DNA of 64,000 bases from contig OX597825.1 in assembly GCA_951406725.2 (NCBI GenBank), positions 26,846,001 to 26,910,000 of the forward strand. The letters run 5' to 3'. Source of the DNA: Octopus vulgaris. Lineage: Eukaryota. Each line of letters opens with the position of its first letter. Positions within the stretch are counted from its first letter, which is position 1. Of the stretch, positions 3,298 to 47,358 are shown in pieces. The notes beneath the pieces were generated by a model that saw only the letters and a list, made by a program, of their open reading frames with translations, was not told the origin of the DNA and ran no database searches. The translations under genes and the position numbers were made by a program.

Positions 3298-4987
3298 ATG
3301 TGTGTGCGTATGTGTATAAAATACTTAAGAGTAAAAGTTAAATGGTGTATTATTCTTTTTTCCCTCTCTTTCTCCATCCCTCCATAAATTGTACAATTTT
3401 CGCCTCTGACAGAAATCAATATATTCTGCAAATTTTCTTGGAAATTTGATTTTCGAGGCTTTGAAAATCATAGGAAATATTCGAGACTAAGTTAGTTAAT
3501 TCTATTTCACATTCAGTTTTGTTCAATTTTATTGTTTCCCCTTTTCTCTTATTTTGATTAATTTTTCTTGCTTCCTGCAAATGTATTTCGCTTGCTGGAG
3601 GCCCTTCTTGTCGGAATGTTTTAATTAAAATATATCATAAACACAGGTGAAAACAACTGCAAGGCATTAGTGCAAAGGGATAGAAATTTCTAAAAAGCAA
3701 ATAAAATTAGAATTAAGAATAATAAAGACATAACTTATAAATATATGAAATTTCATAAATGTGTTAAATTCATTTTGCAAGTATGGTACTTTCTTTAATT
3801 TTATGTTTTTGAAACCTCTGGTAAATAATCAAAGCTGCAGCATATTTGATTAAAATGTTGTTAATTCTTAATTTCGTTTTAGAATTACATAGATTTTCAT
3901 TATCATAATAATCATTGTTAAACAAAATATAGGATACGGATGTTAAAATCTCAGCCTTCTGGCGCCTATGTAAATTTTATATATTATAAATTATATGTCT
4001 GCAGTTGCTACTTTAAGCGTTGGTATAAACTAGAAATCTGTGCATATTCGGTTGAATTGAGATTTGTACTTATTATTTTGAATAAACCAAAATATATGAC
4101 TGGTATATAATATATGAAACGAAAATCGATGCATGAAAGAAACAAGGGAGGAAAGGAGAACAAGTATTTCGTTGCATTCCGTTTAGTAACAGAGTTACGA
4201 ATATATCGGAATGGAGAAACTAGCAACCAGCAGATTTTACTGAATTACTATACATTGAAAAACCTGAATAGCCCTAGTTTCACGACGGTTTTCTATATCT
4301 GTTGTTTGTGTATAGTCACTAAACCGCGAATCCTCTTGAGGGATTGCGTTTTTGTGATGAGAATTTATGTTGCATCACTAATAACACTATCATTAGTGTT
4401 CTCCTTCTCGGGAGTTATTCATCTCTCACCAGAATTTTCTACTGAAATTCATACTGCGTATGTGTGGTTTCCTTGGGTTTATACAATATCGATTCCTCTT
4501 AGCGTATGTCGAAATTACTATACGTGCAGAATGTATAGTTAGTTTCAACACCTCTGGTTTTTGACCGCTGCAGTGTTTGTTTACCAGGTAGGTAGTTAAT
4601 TGTAATTCACTGTACGTTACGGAAACATTCGTTGAGATTGTATAGCTGCACCTGTTATTACCTCTCGTATTGCTGGTACTGTTCCTTAATGCGAGACCAT
4701 TAACATTGTCGCTATTAGTTCTGTCGCTTTATCCATTGTTAATTATGTTACCATTAATCTGATTACAAATATCATTCCTCAACGTATTATGACATCTCCC
4801 TACTGAAATAATTCGAACTAACACTGATCTGCATTTGTAACTGGATCATAAAATTCAACATCTAGCTCTGTATTAATAATAACTGTGTCTATTTTCTCTT
4901 TCATTAACTATCTATATATAACTGAGTGTAGTTGTTCCAACCTACGATGGTATGTGTATTTTTACTTTCATAATATTCGTCGTCTTT

Positions 4988-5203
4988 AAGGCATCGAACT
5001 GGCAGAGACGTTACCACGCTGGGCGAAATGCTTAGCAATAATTCGTGTCTTTATGTTCTGAGTTCAAATTACGCCGAGGTCGACTTAGCCTTTCATCGTT
5101 TCGGGGTTAATGAATTAAGTACCAGTTGCGTATTGCGGTCGATCTAATTGACTGTCCCCACTCTCCCAAAATTCCGGGACTTGTGCCTAGAGTAGAGAAG
5201 AAT
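4988..5203 (+). mobile_element. tRNA-derived SINE, family A (tail type 1), diverged
   Basis: A-box-like CTGGCAGAGACG, B-box GAGTTCAAATT, core GCCTTTCATCGTTTCGGGG; degenerate TSD aatattcgtcgtcttt (4972) / aatattcgttgccttt (5201). Confidence 0.9.
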
Positions 5204-5289
5204 ATTCGTTGCCTTTTATAGCATTTCTTTGTTCAAATAAATTTTTTATTAATATTTCAGCTACTGATAATATAATTAAGAAGCGTGTA

Positions 5290-7860: not shown

Positions 7861-7933
<73 letters not shown>

Positions 7934-7939
7934 TATATA

Positions 7940-8110
7940 GGGAGAATTCATGAAAATAATCACAAGACGAAGACAGGTGGTGCAGAAAACAAATAGATGT
8001 ATTAGTATAACGCTCGGGAATTGAAAAAGTATTTAACGTTTCGAGCCTACGCTCTTCCACAGAAAGGAAGACAGAAAGAAACAAGGAAAGAAAATATGTG
8101 TGTAGTGGCT
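7940..8110 (-). mobile_element. Short Penelope-like insert next to (TA)n, copy 1
   Basis: Aligns end to end with 24056-24240; TA-rich repeat on both sides; carries a hammerhead-like motif. Confidence 0.7.
8032..8065 (-). ncRNA. Minimal hammerhead-ribozyme-like motif with variant core
   Basis: Minus strand TTT-CTGTGGA-A-GAGC(GTAG)GCTC-GAAACGTT-AAA. Confidence 0.55.
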
Positions 8111-8414
8111 ACATATATATGTGTGTACATACATTCATACATAAACACACACAAGTATACGCGTAAAGATTATTTCTGTCTGATGATGTAACGCAATATG
8201 TAAGTATTACACGAGTTCAGTTTGGTTTACAACTAAGTCTCCGGATAGAACTGCCACAGAGAGCTACATGATGTTGAAGCTGTGTGTCAAAGATTGCTTG
8301 AAATATTTCATCACTACGCCAGTCGAAAGATATTAGAAACAGACTGAGCAAGCAAAACATGTCGTATCACCAGTGAGAATTCAATTTATAGTTCATAAAT
8401 AGTGCAGAGAAGTT

Positions 8415-9105
8415 ATACTAAATAATATCTTTTACAGCTGTTTCTATAATAGATAAGCATATGGATTGTGTGTTATTGAGTAAAGATTTCCTAACTAAGC
8501 TAACTACTGCGTTATGTGAGGGAGAAGAAAATGTAAAGACCATCATTCATTAAGGATATTAGTAGTTAGCTGTTCATAAAGGATGTAGGGCGTGTCCAAT
8601 CTGAAAGATATCTGTGGTTGGTAGACCAATGACCGAAACATTAAGGAGATCCTTAAATTATATTGTCTTAGTAAAAGAGAATATCAATTAGCAGTTCCAT
8701 ATATTATTCGAAGGCACCCTCCCCTAAACACCTCACATCCTCTTCAAAGGTGATGCTAGTAGCTTACATCATCTTTTAGTATTTATTTTCCTTGGTACTT
8801 CAACAATAGGGCTGCTAACTGACATTATCTTTTCCTAAAGATTTTACAAAGGATCTCCTTAATTCTTCGACCATGCATCTACCAGGCACAATTATCTTTT
8901 ACTTTAGACATTACTTATTTCCTCTACGGAGGGATAGTTACTAAAACTAATACCCTCAGTTAAGGTACTCTATGTCGCCGTCTGTTTGTCTGTCTGTCTC
9001 TCTCTCCGACCACGACGGCTTATGTTACATGGAAAACTTTACTCAATAGCATGCGATCCTCATGCTTAACATTTCCAAAATAGCTGTAAGAGACTAACTA
9101 TTTAC
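8415..9105. repeat. Old inverted repeat, arms ~8415-8719 and ~8794-9105
   Basis: attaaggagatcctt (8640) / aaggatctccttaat (8849); tattgagtaaag / tttactcaata; ttacagctgt / atagctgtaa, all in mirror order. Confidence 0.8.
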
Positions 9106-9230
9106 TCTAATTATTATGCAGGTAGGTTTAAATTATTTATTAAATGATGTCGGGTGATGCGATATATTTTGCGTGTTCATTCTGTTTTTAATATGGAAAT
9201 ATACACACACGTACATACATATATGCATGC

Positions 9231-11803: not shown

Positions 11804-13040
11804 CAACGTATGTGAATAATAGATGAGGTATCAAGCTGGATACAGAATGAGCATGCAAAACAGGTATCACACGTTAGCATTTAATTTATAATTCAAAAAT
11901 AGTGCAGAGAAATTATACTAAATAATGTCTTTGTTAAGATTTCCACATAAGCTTACTACTGGAATTTCTACCCTTATAAGCAGGCTGTGATATTCTTGGT
12001 ACTTGAGTGAGTGTTTGCTACCCTCGTTAATATTTATTTATTTGTCCGTGTTATTTGTAAACATAGTAAAAATACACTTAAAAACATTCATGCATACATA
12101 CATATAAATATTTATATATAAAAGCATATACATATATTTTAAGATATGCATGTAATAAAAATTTAGGGATATCAAAACAGACTTTTATTTTCTTTTTAGA
12201 TTTGCTGGCAACATCTTAAAGTGTACTTTAATAAAATCTATGTCATCATTACAGCTTTTATATAAGCATTCACCGAACGGCCATACGGAATAACAAAGAA
12301 CTGATTTTACATCATGTAAGGAAATGAATTAGCTGAACATAACAGAAAGAGAACTTTATAAACACAGACAGACACAGAATGGCGCAATGCATACGCGCAC
12401 ATACACTCACAAAGACACACATACACACGCAGATGTAATCACATACATATACGCCTCATTTCGTTGAATGATATTGTATGTTTTCCTTGAAATTACACTT
12501 CCACTCCTCGTCTCGTTTTGATTTAAGTTCTTTTTATCTTTCAAACTTCATCTATAAACTACGTAAGCATTATTAGAATAGATACTGTTTGCACAATTTA
12601 CTCACAAATATGCGAACACAAACCATGTAAAGAAGTGCACTTGTAGATTTTGTTTGTCTTATTTGCCTGTGGGTTATATACAAATGAGTTAACATTCATA
12701 AGCGAAAAGGATATATATGCGCCTGTATGTATGTATGGATGTATATATGTGTGTATGTCTATACATACATATATACATATAATATATATATATATACAGA
12801 AAACGCGTAAACCATTGGTTCGTTTTGTTCTCTTACTTTATTATCATCTTATAATCATCTCATAATAATGACCTTTATGTCTCGTATTACTACCTCAGTC
12901 AATCTAAATGTATATATTTGTCGTTACCTGTCATAAATAGCCTTTTTCTATTTGCAATATGCATTTTCGTTGATTTTTCACATTTTTACCCTTACATTTC
13001 CACGTGTATTTTATATTTTCTTTTCGTAACATATTTCCAC

Positions 13041-13077
<37 letters not shown>

Positions 13078-13089
13078 ATGTATATATAT

Positions 13090-13242
13090 AATACAGTGTA
13101 CATCTAAACACTTGAGGAATTCACTAATGGGATTCAGCGCGCTAGAGAAAACAGCTAGGTTCTATAAGCACAACATTTGTGATAAAATCCGACAGGAACG
13201 AAATGAAAAAATAAGAACATTTTATCATCCTATATATATATG

Positions 13243-13306
<64 letters not shown>

Positions 13307-13493
13307 ATTTACTTGCTAAATTAAAATCAGAAACCAATTGGTCCAGGAAACTAGATGGTAAAATGTTTTTATTTTTTCATTTCGTTCCTGTCGAATTTTA
13401 GCCCTAATTTTGTGGTTATAGGACCTAGCTGTTCTTCCTAGTGTGTTGAATCCCACTTGCGGATTCCTAATGTGTTTAAAAGTACACTGTATT
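13090..13493. repeat. Diverged inverted repeat, 140 bp arms (13090-13229 and 13354-13493), around a TA/TG microsatellite
   Basis: Equal-length colinear arms; 25 bp perfect core cgacaggaacgaaatgaaaaaataa; outer ends aatacagtgtac / gtacactgtatt. Confidence 0.92.
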
Positions 13494-13584
13494 TTATGAC
13501 TAATACATAGTCTTTGGACTAAATTTTTACACGTTAGGTCACTGGAAGTGAAAACTTTAATTGATTTTCATTTCCCTTTGATAC

Positions 13585-17299: not shown

Positions 17300-18541
17300 T
17301 AGCAAAGATCGACCTTGAACTGTGCATGCGCACTAAGTTCTAACGTCCTAGCTTACTTCCGCTGCTTCCAGCAGTGCATGAAAGGATCGTATGTAGCACG
17401 TGATCGTCGAATTGATAATGACAGATTTGAGCAAAAAATTTGCATAGCATTTTGCCAAAAACTTCGTGATCCCTGCTCGGAGTGGGGTGTATGAACCAAT
17501 CGTACACAAGTGTACGTTTGGTTCAGACGTTTCCAAGATAACCGAAAAATGTCAATAGAACTGAGAAAAACATCCCAGGCATGCTTGCAACTGTGAGGGG
17601 AAATCGTCGAATCACCATCCGCGCGTTATCGGAGGATGTGCAGATTAGTCACGGTTCCGTTGAATCCAATGTCACTGAAGACTTAGTTATGAGACGCCTG
17701 CTTTCAGCTGACCAAAGTGACACTCGGATCTCAGTTGTACAAGATCTCGTTGATTGTGTGGAAAACGTTTTGGAAATGGGTGATACATCGTCGACCTATA
17801 GCTATGACCTCGAAACAAAGGCTCAGCCTTCGAAGTGGAAGATTCCGATGTCTCTGAGACTGAAGAAAGCACGAATGCTTTTCTAGGTTACAAGGGGATC
17901 GTTCATGATGAGTATGTTCCCCCTGGTCAGAAAGTGAAAAAAGGAGTACTACCTATTTCTTTATTACCCACAAGGGGCTAAACATAGAGGGGACAAACAA
18001 GGACAGACAAACGGATTAAATCGATTACATCGACCCCAGTGCGGAACTGGTACTTAATTTATCGACCCCGAAAGGATGAAAGACAAAGTCGACCTCGGCG
18101 GAATTTGAACTCACAACGTAACGACAGACGAAATACCGCTAAGCATTTCATCCGGCGTGCTAACGTTTCTGCCAGCTCGCCGCCTTCTAAGGACATGCTG
18201 AAAAAGGAGTACTACCGTGACGTTTTGCGGCGTTTGTGGGATGCTATTTGTCGAAAAAAGCCACAATTGCATGACAAGCGAGATTTGATTCCATAAACCA
18301 AATCCCACTTGAAAGGAGGAATATTTCAGGACATCGAGGAAATCAAGGTGAATGTGATGAAGCAGCTGCTGATCATCCCAGAAAACGAGTTCCAAGAATG
18401 TTTCCATCAATAAAAGCAGTGCGGAGTTGAGTGTATCGCTTCCAAGGTGGACTACTTTGAAGGAGATCAAATGTCAGTTTGGCATGTGTTGTAGCTCTGT
18501 TTTTATAGTACCAGTCTCGATACTTATTCTAAGATATCGTA
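17300..18541 (+). mobile_element. Decayed mariner transposon interrupted by a SINE
   Basis: Transposase fragments EQKICIAFCQKL, VRGNRRITIRALSEDVQIS, YSYDLETKAQPSKWKIPMS..KKAR, GIVHDEYVPPGQKVKKEYY/RDVLRRL, FQDIEEIK, SQGGLL/YFEGD; left boundary approximate. Confidence 0.9.
17954..18184 (-). mobile_element. Family A SINE (tail type 2) inserted in the mariner
   Basis: Full head GGCGGCGAGCTGGCAGAAACGTTAGC; 16 bp TSD aaaaaggagtactacc at 17938-17953 and 18201-18216. Confidence 0.95.
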
Positions 18542-23975: not shown

Positions 23976-24012
<37 letters not shown>

Positions 24013-24055
24013 GTGTGTTAGTGTTTGTGTTTGTGTGTATATATATATACATATA

Positions 24056-24236
24056 GGGAAAGTTTACGAAATAAAAACAAATGACGAAGTCGGGTGGTGT
24101 ACAAAACAAAGAGATGTATTATTATAGCGCTCAGGAATAGAAAACGTCCTTTACGTTTCGAGCTTAAGCTCTTCTACAGAAAGGTACACAGAAAAAAAAG
24201 GAGAGAAAAACATATGTGTGTATTGGCTAACGATCT

Positions 24237-24240
<4 letters not shown>
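24056..24240 (-). mobile_element. Short Penelope-like insert in (TA)n, copy 2
   Basis: Homologous to 7940-8110; TA repeat on both sides. Confidence 0.7.
24148..24184 (-). ncRNA. Minimal hammerhead-ribozyme-like motif with variant core
   Basis: Minus strand CCTTT-CTGTAGA-A-GAGC(TTAA)GCTC-GAAACGTA-AAGG. Confidence 0.55.
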
Positions 24241-24310
<70 letters not shown>

Positions 24311-24394
24311 TTAACAAATACCTTTAACGGTATTTTTTAATATGCTGGCCATTGATAGAATTTTTTTCGAAAAATTCTATATACATTTGATATA

Positions 24395-24434
<40 letters not shown>

Positions 24435-24480
24435 AATCAATAAATTGTGGGGTTGTGTTGACCGCACGTGAAGAAATGAT

Positions 24481-24656
24481 AGGCAAGGAAAAATTATAAA
24501 AAAGCAGAATGCTACATTGGAGGTAAATTTTAATGAAAATGGGTGTATGGAAAAATTTTTTAAATTTTAAAAAATTAATATGTATTTTTTCATACACCCA
24601 TTTTCATTAAAATTTACCTTCAATTTAGCATTCTGCCTTTTTATAAATTTTCGTTG

Positions 24657-24710
<54 letters not shown>

Positions 24711-24798
24711 GGCAACGAAAATTTATAAAAAGGCAGAACGCTAAATTGAAGGTAAATTTTAATGAAAATGGGTGTATGAAAAAATACATATCAATTTT
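24481..24798. repeat. Triplicated ~75-89 bp segment: forward 24481-24555, reverse 24571-24659, forward 24710-24798
   Basis: Copies 2 and 3 are reverse complements with 2 mismatches around (CT)n(TA)n; copy 1 is more diverged. Confidence 0.95.
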
Positions 24799-25132
24799 AA
24801 TGAAGCTATTGTGATATCCTCTGCCTATGTTTAAATATAATTGTTATCAAATTGGTAGCAATATTAGTGAGAGTGAGAAAGAGAGAGTGACAGAGACAGA
24901 GGTTAAAAGGCGGTAGCTGACAGTATCTTTAGCAGAGCCATAAAATGATTGGTAGCAGGTTTAAATTCTGTTGAGGACGATCTTTCGGTTGACAAACTGG
25001 ATATAGTTTGAATAGTGTGTACAATGGAATTACTTGAGTTGTACCAAAATTTGAAATATTATTAGAGATTCAATCTGTACTGAATGTACATATATACATA
25101 TATACATAATTATACATTTGTATGTATTTATG

Positions 25133-25190
<58 letters not shown>

Positions 25191-25528
25191 CATAAATACA
25201 TACAAATGTATAATTATGTATATATGTATATATGTACATTCAGTACAGATTGAATCTCTAATAATATTTCAAATTTTGGTACAACTCAAGTAATTCCATT
25301 GTACACACTATTCAAACTATATCCAGTTTGTCAACCGAAAGATCGTCCTCAACAGAATTTAAACCTGCTACCAATCATTTTATGGCTCTGCTAAAGATAC
25401 TGTCAGCTACCGCCTTTTAACCTCTGTCTCTGTCACTCTCTCTTTCTCACTCTCACTAATATTGCTACCAATTTGATAACAATTATATTTAAAAATAGGC
25501 AGAGGATATCACAATAGCTTCATTAAAA
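24795..25528. repeat. 734 bp near-perfect palindrome centred on (TA)n
   Basis: Arms are reverse complements with one mismatch seen; identical ORFs at 25030..25239(-) and 25084..25293(+). Confidence 0.98.
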
Positions 25529-28668: not shown

Positions 28669-30599
28669 GTACATGTGTGTGTGTGTGTGTGTAGGTATAT
28701 ATTGACAGATGTGTATAATAATTTCACTTCAGACACTTTATTTCTCCATGAATACATGAATACAAGAAACCCAAATGTATTTTGAAAAGAATACGTTCAA
28801 AATTTATGATACCACATATTTCTTGAAAAAAGGTGGGGCTGAAATGTAAATTACATTACGGATTGAGAACAAATTTGACATCCTTTAACACATAATTTTC
28901 AAAAATTAACGTGAGAATAATTGTCGTATTCTTTGAAGGGCATGTTCAAATTGAATTTCATAGATGCATTGTAAGAAAAGAATCTAATATGAAAGACAAC
29001 TGAATATATATTATTACTCACTTGATAACACATTTCAAGAGATAAGCATCAAAATAAAAACTTCTCAACGCATATTCTTGCAATTATTGCAGAATTTCTT
29101 CCTGAAAGATGAACGTCTGCATATAAAGATTTGCGCTTGCCCTGTTTAGACGAGATACATTATTCAGATTTAAACCATTCTCAGATTACTTCACGTATGT
29201 GTCACTGATTAAATCCCCTAGTACATCTGTAGTGGATTTTAGTTTTCCCCTCCTGCTACATACGATAATTTCTCTGCGTGAAGAATCGAACCTGTCTATG
29301 ATAGTTTACGAATAAATTTCCTATTTCATGCGTATAAAATTACTTAACACGATGTAGTAAGACGTTACGCCATTATTGGTTATTAGTTCACAAATCTGAT
29401 ATCAACAAATACCTAAATCGATTAGGATTGAAATTCGGAGGCGTCATCGGTCAAATTTTAATACAAATTTTAATGTCGTATACGTTTAATCCAGTACTGT
29501 AGAGAAGACTCAACATTTTCCAAAATTTTAGACATTATGCGTCTCAATAACATCAAATATTTGATTGCTTTACTTGATTCAATATTGATCACTTGATACA
29601 GTATAAAGTTAAGCGAAAAACCCATGCCAAAAATATGTCGTTATCTTTGAAGAGTTAATAGCAATGGCCCGATGTTTTCTCTGTTAATGAGATAAAAGTA
29701 GCTGCCAACTCGAATCACTGGAGTAAGGTATAGAAATGATATCACTCAGAAGAGAATTAATATTGCTCGTCAAATATACACCGATAACATTTGCAACAAG
29801 ATTACATTGACAGACAAGTAGATTCTGTGTGGAAATAAAAATCAATAAAATTGCATTTATGGTTTCTTTATCACTCTCTTGTGTATGGCTCGCCAGGAGC
29901 CGTGCGCTACACCACGGAACCTCGCAAATATAGCTGAGAAGCTTTGCATTGCTATGTTTGGATGTGCGTATAAATGTATTTGCGTATGAGCTACGTAATC
30001 TAATTATGATGATGACACACCGATGCTAACACTAATTCTGAGTTCGATTGATTTTGTAATCCTAACCAATTGTCAAGAAGCAATTCTGTATCCATTTGTC
30101 GAGTGTTTTCTTTAAAGAACGTTGAATTTCAAGAGCTTCACTTTGCTTTGTTCTAATTCCATGGGTAGATTGTATCGTTGCTGAAGATTCTGACTGAATT
30201 AATTTTATGCGCTACTTTTGTTTCTTTTCCAAGTATGAACACTATCGCCATATTTTATCACCTACTTATTAAAGGCGATCATGAGGGAAATGGAAAATCA
30301 AACAAGATTTTTAATTTTGGCGCAAAACCGGCAATTTGGGGCATGAATAAGTCGATTACATTGATCTCGGTGTTCAAGTAGTGTTTATTTTGTAGAGAGA
30401 TAGTATTTATTCTCTCTAAGAACAAACTTGCTGTGGTAGATACCATGAAAGAAACTCTCATATAGGTTCTTGGTTCAAAATGAACGCTCAATTATATCGT
30501 TAGCGGTGAGACAAATCCCCTCCAACTCTAACTCTAACAACACCAGGTCACGTGATGTCGACTTCCCTTGGATGGGTGCTCGATCGCTAGAGATAAAGT

Positions 30600-30731
30600 T
30601 ATTTTATAGACCCACGAAATGAGGAAAATCAAAGTCCACCTCGGTGACATTTGAACTCAGAACGTAACAACAGACGAAATGCCTCTAAGGCCTTTGCCAG
30701 GCGTGTAAACGATTCCGCAACTCCACCTCCT
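30600..30731 (-). mobile_element. Partial decayed family A SINE (head and core)
   Basis: atttgaactcagaacgtaacaacagacgaaat matches the family A copies. Confidence 0.8.
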
Positions 30732-38944: not shown

Positions 38945-39527
38945 TTTTCTGCTCGAGGAACAAGGCCGGAAATTTTGTGGGAGAGGGCCAGTCGACTAGA
39001 TCGGCCCCAGTACGCAAGTGGTGCTTAGTTTATCTATCCCAAAATGATTAAAGGCAAAGTTGACTTCGGCGGAATTTGAACTCAGAACGTAACGGCAGAC
39101 GAAATACCTATTTCTTTACTACCCACAAGGGGTTAAACACAGAGGGGACGAATAAGGAGAGACAAACAGATTAATTCGATTATATATACGCCATTGCGTA
39201 ACTGGTACTTATTTAATCGACCCCGAATGGATGAAAGGCAAAGTTGACCTCGGCTGAATTTGAACTCACAACGTAGCGGCAGACGAAATACCTATTTCTT
39301 TACTACTCACAGGGGGCTAAACACAGAGGGGACTAACAAGGAGAGACAAACGGATTAAGTCGATTATACATATATCCCAGTGGGTAACTGATACTTATTT
39401 AATCGACCCCGAAAGGATGAAAGGCAAAGTCGACCTCGGCGGAATTTGAACTCAGAACGTATCGGCGGGCTAAATACCACAAAGCATTTCACCTGATGTA
39501 CTAACGTTTCTGCTAGCTCGCCTCCTT
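38945..39527 (-). mobile_element. Tandem trimer of family A SINE (one head, three bodies)
   Basis: Identical junctions gacgaaatacc|tatttc at 39108/39109 and 39292/39293; middle unit is 184 bp. Confidence 0.93.
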
Positions 39528-40276
39528 ACAAAAGAATAAATATCAAAAATACATTTACAATATAAACCTATATGTCTAAATAGAACAGTGGTAAATGATA
39601 TGCAGCTAGGATGAGATCCTAGCAACAAATATATTGCATGAAACAAAACGTTGATCAAAAAATAATATAAAAGTTATGCATTCTGAATTATTTGACTAAT
39701 TAATAGAAAATATCATATCTAAGACTTTTTTTCCCTGGTATTATGAATTTTGATGTTGCTGCTTTGAATTTTTTATAGCATGTGCCCGCGACAGACCTGT
39801 CTAACGTAGTCCGTAATAACGCTATAAATCTCAATAATATAACAAAATGTACATTATTAGCCACCAAGGAATTTGCGAAGGGCATATTAATGACAGATTA
39901 TATCAACCAAAGCAACAAAAATCGAGAAATTATTGCGTATTAATTATTATGTTTGACATCCAACAGCATCCCGAGAAGCTTTCTCTATTCAGTGGGAGGA
40001 GGGATAAAATGTAAAGGGCAATTTCTCACATTTGGTTGCATTTAACATGTCGATTAACGCTTTCGTTCGGAGTAATTAAAGTAAATTATTGGTGTCCATT
40101 ACAAACCACCAATAATAACTATATTAATGGTGGTACCCTTATTAATCATAAAAATATATTATTACGTTGTAATTGACGCGTGGAATAATTATTAGGGATG
40201 TAAATGATCATAATATGGGACTTGAGGAGGTTATGGAAAAGCAATAATAATGTGAGTGATGAGTTCTCGAACACTT

Positions 40277-45300: not shown

Positions 45301-45397
45301 ATACACACATGCACGCGCACTCACACACACACATATATACATACATATGTTTCATATGTATATATATATATGTACATATATATATATGTAAAGGCAT

Positions 45398-45628
45398 AAG
45401 GCGGCGAGCTGGCAGAGACGTTAGCACGCCGGGCGAAGTGCTTCGCGGTATTTCGCCCGTCGCTACTTTCTGAGTTCAAATTCCGCCGAGGTCGACTTTG
45501 CCTTTCATCCTTTCGGGGTCGATAAATTAAGTACCACTTACGCACTGGGGCCGATGTAATCGACTTAATCCGTTTGTCTGTCCTTGTTTGTCCCCTCTAT
45601 GTTTAGCCCCTTGCGGGTAGTAAAGAAA
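45398..45628 (+). mobile_element. Family A SINE (tail type 2), full length
   Basis: GGCGGCGAGCTGGCAGAGACGTTAGC..GAGTTCAAATTCC..CCTTTCATCCTTTCGGGGTCGATAAATTAAGTACC. Confidence 0.95.
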
Positions 45629-46473: not shown

Positions 46474-47128
46474 GTGTATGTGTGTGTATATATATCTATT
46501 ATTTAATATAAATAAATATATATATACACATATATTCACACCGGCACACACACACTCACACACATATATACGTACATACATATATGTACTGATGCTTAGT
46601 TTTAAAGTTCTACTTTATTATTCTTATCTTCATTTCCTTTAAATCTTTCTCTATTTACTGTGATACATTTAGAACATTACCAACATATTTTTCTATACTA
46701 CTTAAGTTTATTCCTTTCTGTCAAACATATTTTATATTCGCTACAATCTTCACATTTTGAATCGTTATTGCATCTATAATTTTTCTCTAGGAATTTTACC
46801 TCATGCCATATATCATATTACTATTTGAACACGTCTATATACTTATTGCCTATCAATCATGTGAATACAGAAAGTATCCAGTCCATCCGTGGGGACGATA
46901 TATTATGACTGGAATCATACATCAAGTTTAGACAAATAAACAATCACACGGTCACAATAATAGTATGTCTATTAATGTTGTCATTAATTCCAAACTCTGT
47001 GAGATGAGGTAATAGGAAGTAGCAGCGTTGTTATATTTATAGCAATATTGCCATACCTACAGCCGTCATAGCCATCAAATAATTTTACATGTTTTTAGCT
47101 ACCGGCTTAACTTTATATTTTATATATC

Positions 47129-47358
47129 CATTTCTTTATTACCCACAAGGGGCTAAAGACAGAGGAGACAAACAAGGACAGACATAGGTATTAAGTCGAT
47201 TACATCGACCCCAGTGCGTAACTGGTACTTAATTTATCGACCCCGAAAGGATGAAAGGCAAAGTCGACCTCGGCGGAATTTGAACTCAGAACGTATCGAC
47301 AGACGAAATACGGCTACGCATTTCGCCCGGCGTGCTAACGTTTCTGCCAGCTCGCCTT
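47129..47358 (-). mobile_element. Family A SINE (tail type 2) with 12 bp TSD
   Basis: TSD attttatatatc at 47117-47128 and 47361-47372. Confidence 0.95.

Follow-up and report, generated by a model that had tools for sequence, protein, structure and literature searches.

A TA-repeat tract of Octopus vulgaris split by inverted copies of both of its flanks: a candidate two-ended fold-back scar

How does a TA-repeat tract come to be split by some 430 bases that consist of nothing but reversed copies of its own two flanks? This question is raised by a locus near 25 kb in the stretch of Octopus vulgaris DNA analyzed here (64 kb, referred to as the window), where the arrangement became apparent by sequence comparison. 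The window has a GC content of 25–39%, gives 70 rows of tandem repeats in TRF and contains no N. In the following, the left flank of the tract is designated L and the right flank R, while A1 denotes an older inverted copy of L located further upstream (Table 1).

Table 1. Features of the split TA tract and of an older, one-sided structure in the same window (positions in the window).
Feature	Position	Strand	Remarks
Older one-sided scar	13041..13497	.	Inverted 143-nt copy 13089-13231 of downstream 13352-13494
A1, older inverted copy of L	24478..24556	+	91% identity, 10-nt deletion near tip; left arm of older hairpin, centre ~24565
Tip of older hairpin, A/T-only	24554..24576	.	Contains left breakpoint of L (24571)
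L, original left flank	24571..24659	+	Core is a high-copy dispersed repeat
(CT)15	24658..24686	+	Without mirror in inverted copy
First TA tract, (TA)12	24687..24710	.	
Inverted copy of L	24710..24798	-	C at 24739 and 24792, T in L
4-nt microhomology join	24795..24798	.	Sequence overlap; crossed by X2 contig 24755-24824
Inverted copy of R	24795..25136	-	G at 24829, T in R
Second TA tract, (TA)25	25137..25186	.	Exact centre of 734-bp palindrome
R, original right flank	25187..25528	+	Runs on into downstream sequence

An earlier reading made from the sequence alone (the sequence-only reading) had described this architecture, and its description of the arms is borne out by the alignments. On the left, 24571-24659 pairs with 24710-24798 over 89 nt with two mismatches (24577/24792 and 24630/24739). 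On the right, 24795-25161 and 25162-25528 form arms of 367 nt each without any spacer and with a single mismatch (24829/25494); once the perfect (TA)25 is set aside, 342 nt of each arm remain. The TTTT at 24795-24798 is common to both inverted copies, as had been claimed, and identity stops abruptly past both of them. Near-perfect inverted arms of this kind flank two of the 33 tracts of (TA)≥8 in the 64-kb window, both at this locus, and a third tract (13244-13290) is flanked by a diverged inverted arm. The left side is less regular than the right. The copy of L follows directly on (TA)12, and (CT)15 has no (AG)n as its mirror image, so that the left palindrome has an asymmetric spacer of 50 nt and a simple turn within the TA tract does not yield the left copy. 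A distance of 6 nt separates the boundary of L from the older hairpin's tip, and a break at this hairpin hence fits at least as well as one within the TA tract.

The locus is probably a real and young non-coding rearrangement. None of the five stop-to-stop frames of at least 150 aa in the window overlaps it, no match was obtained in the window with Rfam at gathering scores, and the folding energies restate the palindromes and nothing further. There is no sign of a function at the locus, and none is implied.

Given such a palindrome, a mobile element is an obvious suspect. The sequence-only reading had itself named a dispersed repeat with unrelated flanks as the observation that would speak against a local origin. 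Taken as one piece, the insert was found not to be dispersed: besides the core of L, multi-copy sequence is confined to two brief segments of R. In L, the core (equivalent to 24717-24783) is part of a dispersed repeat that occurs in many copies and continues into varied A-rich sequence, and the depth summed over 24717-24783 reaches thousands in three of the four public sequencing runs that were compared and hundreds in X4. R is mostly single-copy, the exceptions being 24866-24905 and 25023-25074; the latter, as it lies in the inverted copy of R, is multi-copy in all four runs. No further copies of R were found in the window, and a 29-nt piece of L gave no matches among metagenome contigs. Insertion of a TA-targeting transposable element, of which MuTAnT is an example (PMC4486113), could draw on the high copy number of the L core. 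Yet, the inverted copy tracks the local L for 15 nt past the family core (24784-24798), R is mostly single-copy, and the ends of the insert are copies of the local flanks rather than element termini. Judged by its sequence, the insert is thus a local copy and not a transposon insertion. Against the idea that the whole structure is a library or assembly chimera, the recurrence of the join in one run (see below) can be cited. Both variants are largely refuted, and we regard them as extremely improbable. As a separate observation, the dispersed repeat of L also forms the older 185-bp hairpin with A/T-only tip at 24478-24662 (91% identity), which could be a fold-back scar in its own right or mark both ends of a small foldback element.

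Whether the central join exists outside the assembly was addressed with public reads. According to a word index, part of 24711-25089 is present in nine of 24 listed runs. For this region, contigs (and contigs only) of four runs, X1, X2, X4 and X5, were compared; the results rest on the 32 of 1,078 pieces among the matches listed, with X2 read to about 80%. These contigs are blind to the orientation of the blocks, since none of those compared spans a TA tract. Among the matches listed, the join was found in one of the four runs, X2, where record 16 (70 nt, depth 23.3) spans 24755-24824 with one difference, a T at 24792 that corresponds to the L allele. The sequence-only reading had made its case depend on single reads across the junction. 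The join is indeed crossed in X2, but by a contig that has 40 letters to its left and 26 to its right (30 with the microhomology included), which falls below the 31-letter bridging rule. The end of this contig at 24824 coincides with the branch predicted for a 31-mer graph if the join and R with its own flank coexist. In line with this, the bin depths of 45.1, 63.8 and 49.1 in X2 are reproduced if 24795-24824 carries a further contig of depth 40.5, which is deduced from these depths and absent among the matches listed. The depth of the join itself in X2 is estimated at 9–23, depending on the contribution of L. In X4, the match of record 23 starts at 24795, is preceded by 15 other letters and carries T at 24829. 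X4 hence holds R with its own flank, and the join is not among the matches listed for this run, which at a depth of 2.2 is a weak absence. X1 and X5 are blank over 24789-24853 and most of R; as X1 contains most of the stretch according to the word index, these blanks say nothing on absence.

The join is therefore probably genomic DNA and not an invention of the assembler. R with its own flank is the commoner form, being deeper in X2 and the sole form in X4, so that the join looks derived, and the insert is possibly polymorphic. The join may be heterozygous, or merely under-sequenced between two hairpins. X2 may be the very source of the window and as such lends no independent population support.

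The orientation of the middle block is a different matter. Conceivably, the genome carries nothing more than a tandem duplication, and it was an error of assembly or gap filling that inverted the middle block. A TA-bounded block has no orientation in short-read graphs, and all of the read evidence is orientation-blind. Moreover, the three arm differences (24739, 24792 and 24829) all lie inside the insert, and the one at 24792 is absent from the X2 contig, which suggests local consensus errors. Nanopore (ONT) genomic reads have also been described to contain about 0.55–0.6% fold-back artefacts (PMC12870357). On the other hand, 64 kb without a single N through long microsatellites suggest a long-read assembly, the first TA tract is with only 24 nt shorter than the usual k-mers, and random fold-back reads would not recreate the join in a separate contig of depth 23. 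We therefore consider an assembly error decidedly unlikely.

The arm differences bear on the age of the event as well. At 24739 and 24792, the inverted copy of L reads C against a T in L; for 24739, the older copy A1 agrees with L in having T, so that C is the derived state. X1 and X2 each contain 0.77 of 34 sampled words, compared with the 0.73 expected if none of the 93 insert-specific words (out of 349) were present; this word share is blind to the join, as the C of the window at 24792 removes nearly all join words. These values suggest that X2 lacks the three substitutions of the window; its arms would then be identical or nearly so, and the event young. Consensus errors may account for the three differences, and since the X2 contig has the L allele at 24792, arm divergence is probably unusable as a clock. 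An interpretation of the differences as alleles, generated by unequal exchange between homologues, was dropped because X2 shows the L allele at 24792. The near-identity of the arms favors one event over two.

This last point is relevant for a scenario in which the join is ancestral and the palindromes arose by separate one-ended fold-backs, i.e. a small inverted triplication of A1, L and the inverted copy, followed by a fold-back of R. Small inverted triplications (DUP/IN/DUP) have a median size of about 150 bp, two junctions and fold-backs at the outer ends of a single contiguous inverted segment (PMC13334657). The orientation switches from A1 to L and again from L to the copy, just as in these structures, and the locus shares with them the size range, microhomology junctions and breakpoints near microsatellites. 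In addition, the X2 contig runs unbroken through the place where the own upstream path of L should branch, an absence that may be attributed to graph cleaning beside a high-copy repeat or to the ~80% of X2 that was read. Against this scenario, A1 differs from L by 9% and the copy from L by 0–2%, which indicates different ages; the palindromes abut within 4 nt, a coincidence that separate events do not explain; and R with its flank, among the matches listed, exceeds the join in depth in X2 and is the sole form present in X4. An ancestral join is thus very unlikely. A single small inverted triplication was rejected, too. Unlike such triplications, the locus has three junctions, and both of its turns are central; the inverted block, the reverse complement of the R end plus the L start, would not form one continuous segment in the inferred empty allele, and A1 and the copy differ in age.

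The best reading, to which we assign a probability of roughly 0.55, is a single break in the TA tract followed by fold-back priming at both ends and joining by the 4-nt microhomology. An empty allele L-(CT)n(TA)n-R would have broken inside its TA tract. At each end, the resected 3′ TA tail would then have folded back and primed its own extension, which would have copied 89 nt on the left and 342 nt on the right. Finally, the two new 3′ ends could have annealed at TTTT/AAAA and primed fill-in synthesis across each other. The missing (AG)n would require an additional step, i.e. looped-out priming on the left; alternatively, an asymmetric deletion may subsequently have removed it from the centre of the palindrome, or the event may have taken place on a haplotype without (CT)n. 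Several features are consistent with this reading. Both turn-around points lie on self-complementary TA, and the insert is the reverse complement of the break-adjacent flank, as in fold-back-primed templated insertion. The 4-nt microhomology falls within the 0–5 nt of fold-back-primed insertions; a microhomology of at least 4 nt occurred in 3.3% of 20,000 random joins. With respect to the fold-back primer, the right turn has a TA tract at its exact centre, while the left offers only 1 nt of perfect pairing before the copy, with (CT)15 skipped. This lack of a mirror for (CT)15 counts against fold-back, as does the 342-nt arm, which exceeds the fold-back tracts in the published descriptions available to us, where two-ended events are not described. 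The sequence-only reading had proposed just this combination of double fold-back and microhomology rejoining, which stands insofar as it follows a documented repair route and its join occurs in the X2 contig; another route leads to the same sequence (see below).

Its comparison with "giant P-nucleotides" fits poorly. P-nucleotides, known from V(D)J joints and hAT excision footprints, comprise a few bases that form an exact mirror and result from opening of a sealed hairpin near its tip. The locus resembles them in carrying palindromic additions on both break ends. However, these measure 89 and 342 nt, (CT)15 has no mirror, and a hairpin would have to be opened 90 and 340 nt from its tip.

Closer parallels come from studies of break repair. 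AT/TA repeats form cruciforms that are cut by Mus81-Mms4 in yeast (PMC12972899), and fold-back priming at short repeats has been reviewed (PMC7999016). Insertions primed in this way are expected to require Pol delta together with NHEJ, or else Pol theta. Local fold-back insertions in yeast take place at one end, extend over 2 to ~150 bp (mostly <14) and show 0–5 nt of microhomology, with a loop of 41 nt (PMC11724301). Like these, the locus contains an inverted copy of break-adjacent sequence that would be primed by fold-back, displays a short microhomology and is left with a longer inverted repeat. Its 50-nt left spacer would correspond to the looped-out 41 nt in yeast. In contrast to the yeast insertions, both ends are involved, the copied tracts amount to 89 and 342 nt, and the event concerns a natural TA microsatellite and was apparently inherited. 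In snap-back SD-MMEJ of Drosophila, for which TA/AT is a frequent primer (PMC5728401), hairpin-primed synthesis likewise generates a microhomology de novo, through which the other end is annealed. As described there, a nascent end pairs with pre-existing sequence, whereas here two nascent ends would pair with each other, and the tracts are much longer. In worms, a small fraction of templated inserts is attributed to snap-back (PMC5068794). Mouse palindromes provide examples of later deletions that break the symmetry (PMC8701086), as considered above for the missing (AG)n. Compared to the known fold-back insertions of yeast and flies, the locus differs in the involvement of two ends and the greater length. 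No published two-ended fold-back at a natural TA tract was found in a literature search with partial coverage of main texts.

The same sequence would also result from two steps, namely a 491-bp tandem duplication of L-(TA)-R by microhomology, followed by inversion of the R-L block in vivo between the TA tracts. As a variant, the unit may have been excised as a small circle that re-entered backwards, the TA tracts matching both orientations. Flipping the block back in silico gives a direct repeat of 24571-25065 and 25062-25528, whose only large gap is (CT)n. The minus strand reads the join as the end of R (25528) fused to the start of L (24571), i.e. a standard head-to-tail junction, and the left breakpoint lies within the tip of the older hairpin. 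In flies, tandem duplications far exceed inverted ones (16 versus 1; PMC11226609). Junction and sequence content are identical to those of a head-to-tail tandem duplication with microhomology, the difference being the inverted middle block of the window. That a tandem duplication with a flipped middle yields the same sequence counts against fold-back, and these two routes are not separable by sequence comparison. Nevertheless, two rare events would have had to occur, by our estimate, in a time too short for arm divergence, and the window contains five local inverted repeats (arms of ~60 nt or more) versus one local direct array, the direct pair of A1 and the copy being left out of this count as a consequence of the nested hairpins. 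Furthermore, the older scar at 13.0–13.5 kb cannot, on inspection, be reduced to a simple tandem by a flip. We hence regard a duplication with subsequent inversion as unlikely.

This older scar gives a possible second instance of fold-back repair in a one-sided form. Its inverted copy sits between two direct copies of (TA)n(GT)8AT, and both ends meet TA-rich sequence via short TA matches. The arms are identical at 117 of 143 positions (82%); since they have diverged, the copy was not made by an assembler. Beside the centre, 59 nt have no mirror. Judging from these features, the structure looks like a one-ended fold-back scar. Of the five local inverted repeats, counted with simple repeats masked, three are centred no more than 30 nt from a TA tract, a location shared by 5.0% of the window. 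The focal event accounts for two of these repeats; without it, one of three is TA-centred (P ~0.14). On these weak statistics, there is a hint that fold-back scarring at TA recurs.

The surroundings of the locus are repeat-rich in other ways, too. The segment 24.2–25.5 kb is rich in hairpins, and just upstream of the locus, small palindromes lie between TA tracts at 24311-24340 (30 nt) and 24355-24380 (26 nt). Two copies of a repeat (7879-8143 and 23995-24270, 76% identity) start directly after a TA tract; presumably they resemble Penelope-type terminal repeats with a degenerate hammerhead motif, for which Rfam at gathering score gave nothing. An inverted pair at 8330-9194 and 11839-11932 (66–73% identity), accompanied by a third, direct partial copy, probably derives from an old element bounded by long terminal inverted repeats. 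A dispersed SINE-like repeat at 39005-39528, which includes a 184-nt tandem with 2.6 copies (39005-39478), recurs at 4987-5204, 17950-18186, 30599-30718, 45397-45628 and 47124-47357. Finally, two pairs of direct repeats are each spaced by about 3 kb, 16797-16954/19534-19691 (158 nt, 97%) and 31886-32299/34902-35307 (414 nt, 94%).

Taken together, the data may be generalized, tentatively and as a possibility that we rate below the reading of the locus itself, to long TA microsatellites in this TA-rich animal genome, which would give rise to heritable local palindromes on a continuing basis and independently of transposons. Their breaks would be repaired through fold-back synthesis over hundreds of bases at one or both ends, at a rate high enough for scars of differing age to lie within tens of kilobases of each other and to segregate as alleles. 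In short-read data without spanning reads, TA-bounded palindromes and tandem duplications are indistinguishable. Fold-back repair at TA repeats has so far been studied in yeast reporters, flies and tumours. If the proposal were true genome-wide, such repair would write long heritable palindromes into the animal germ line and would provide a countable scar for testing how breaks at TA cruciforms heal.
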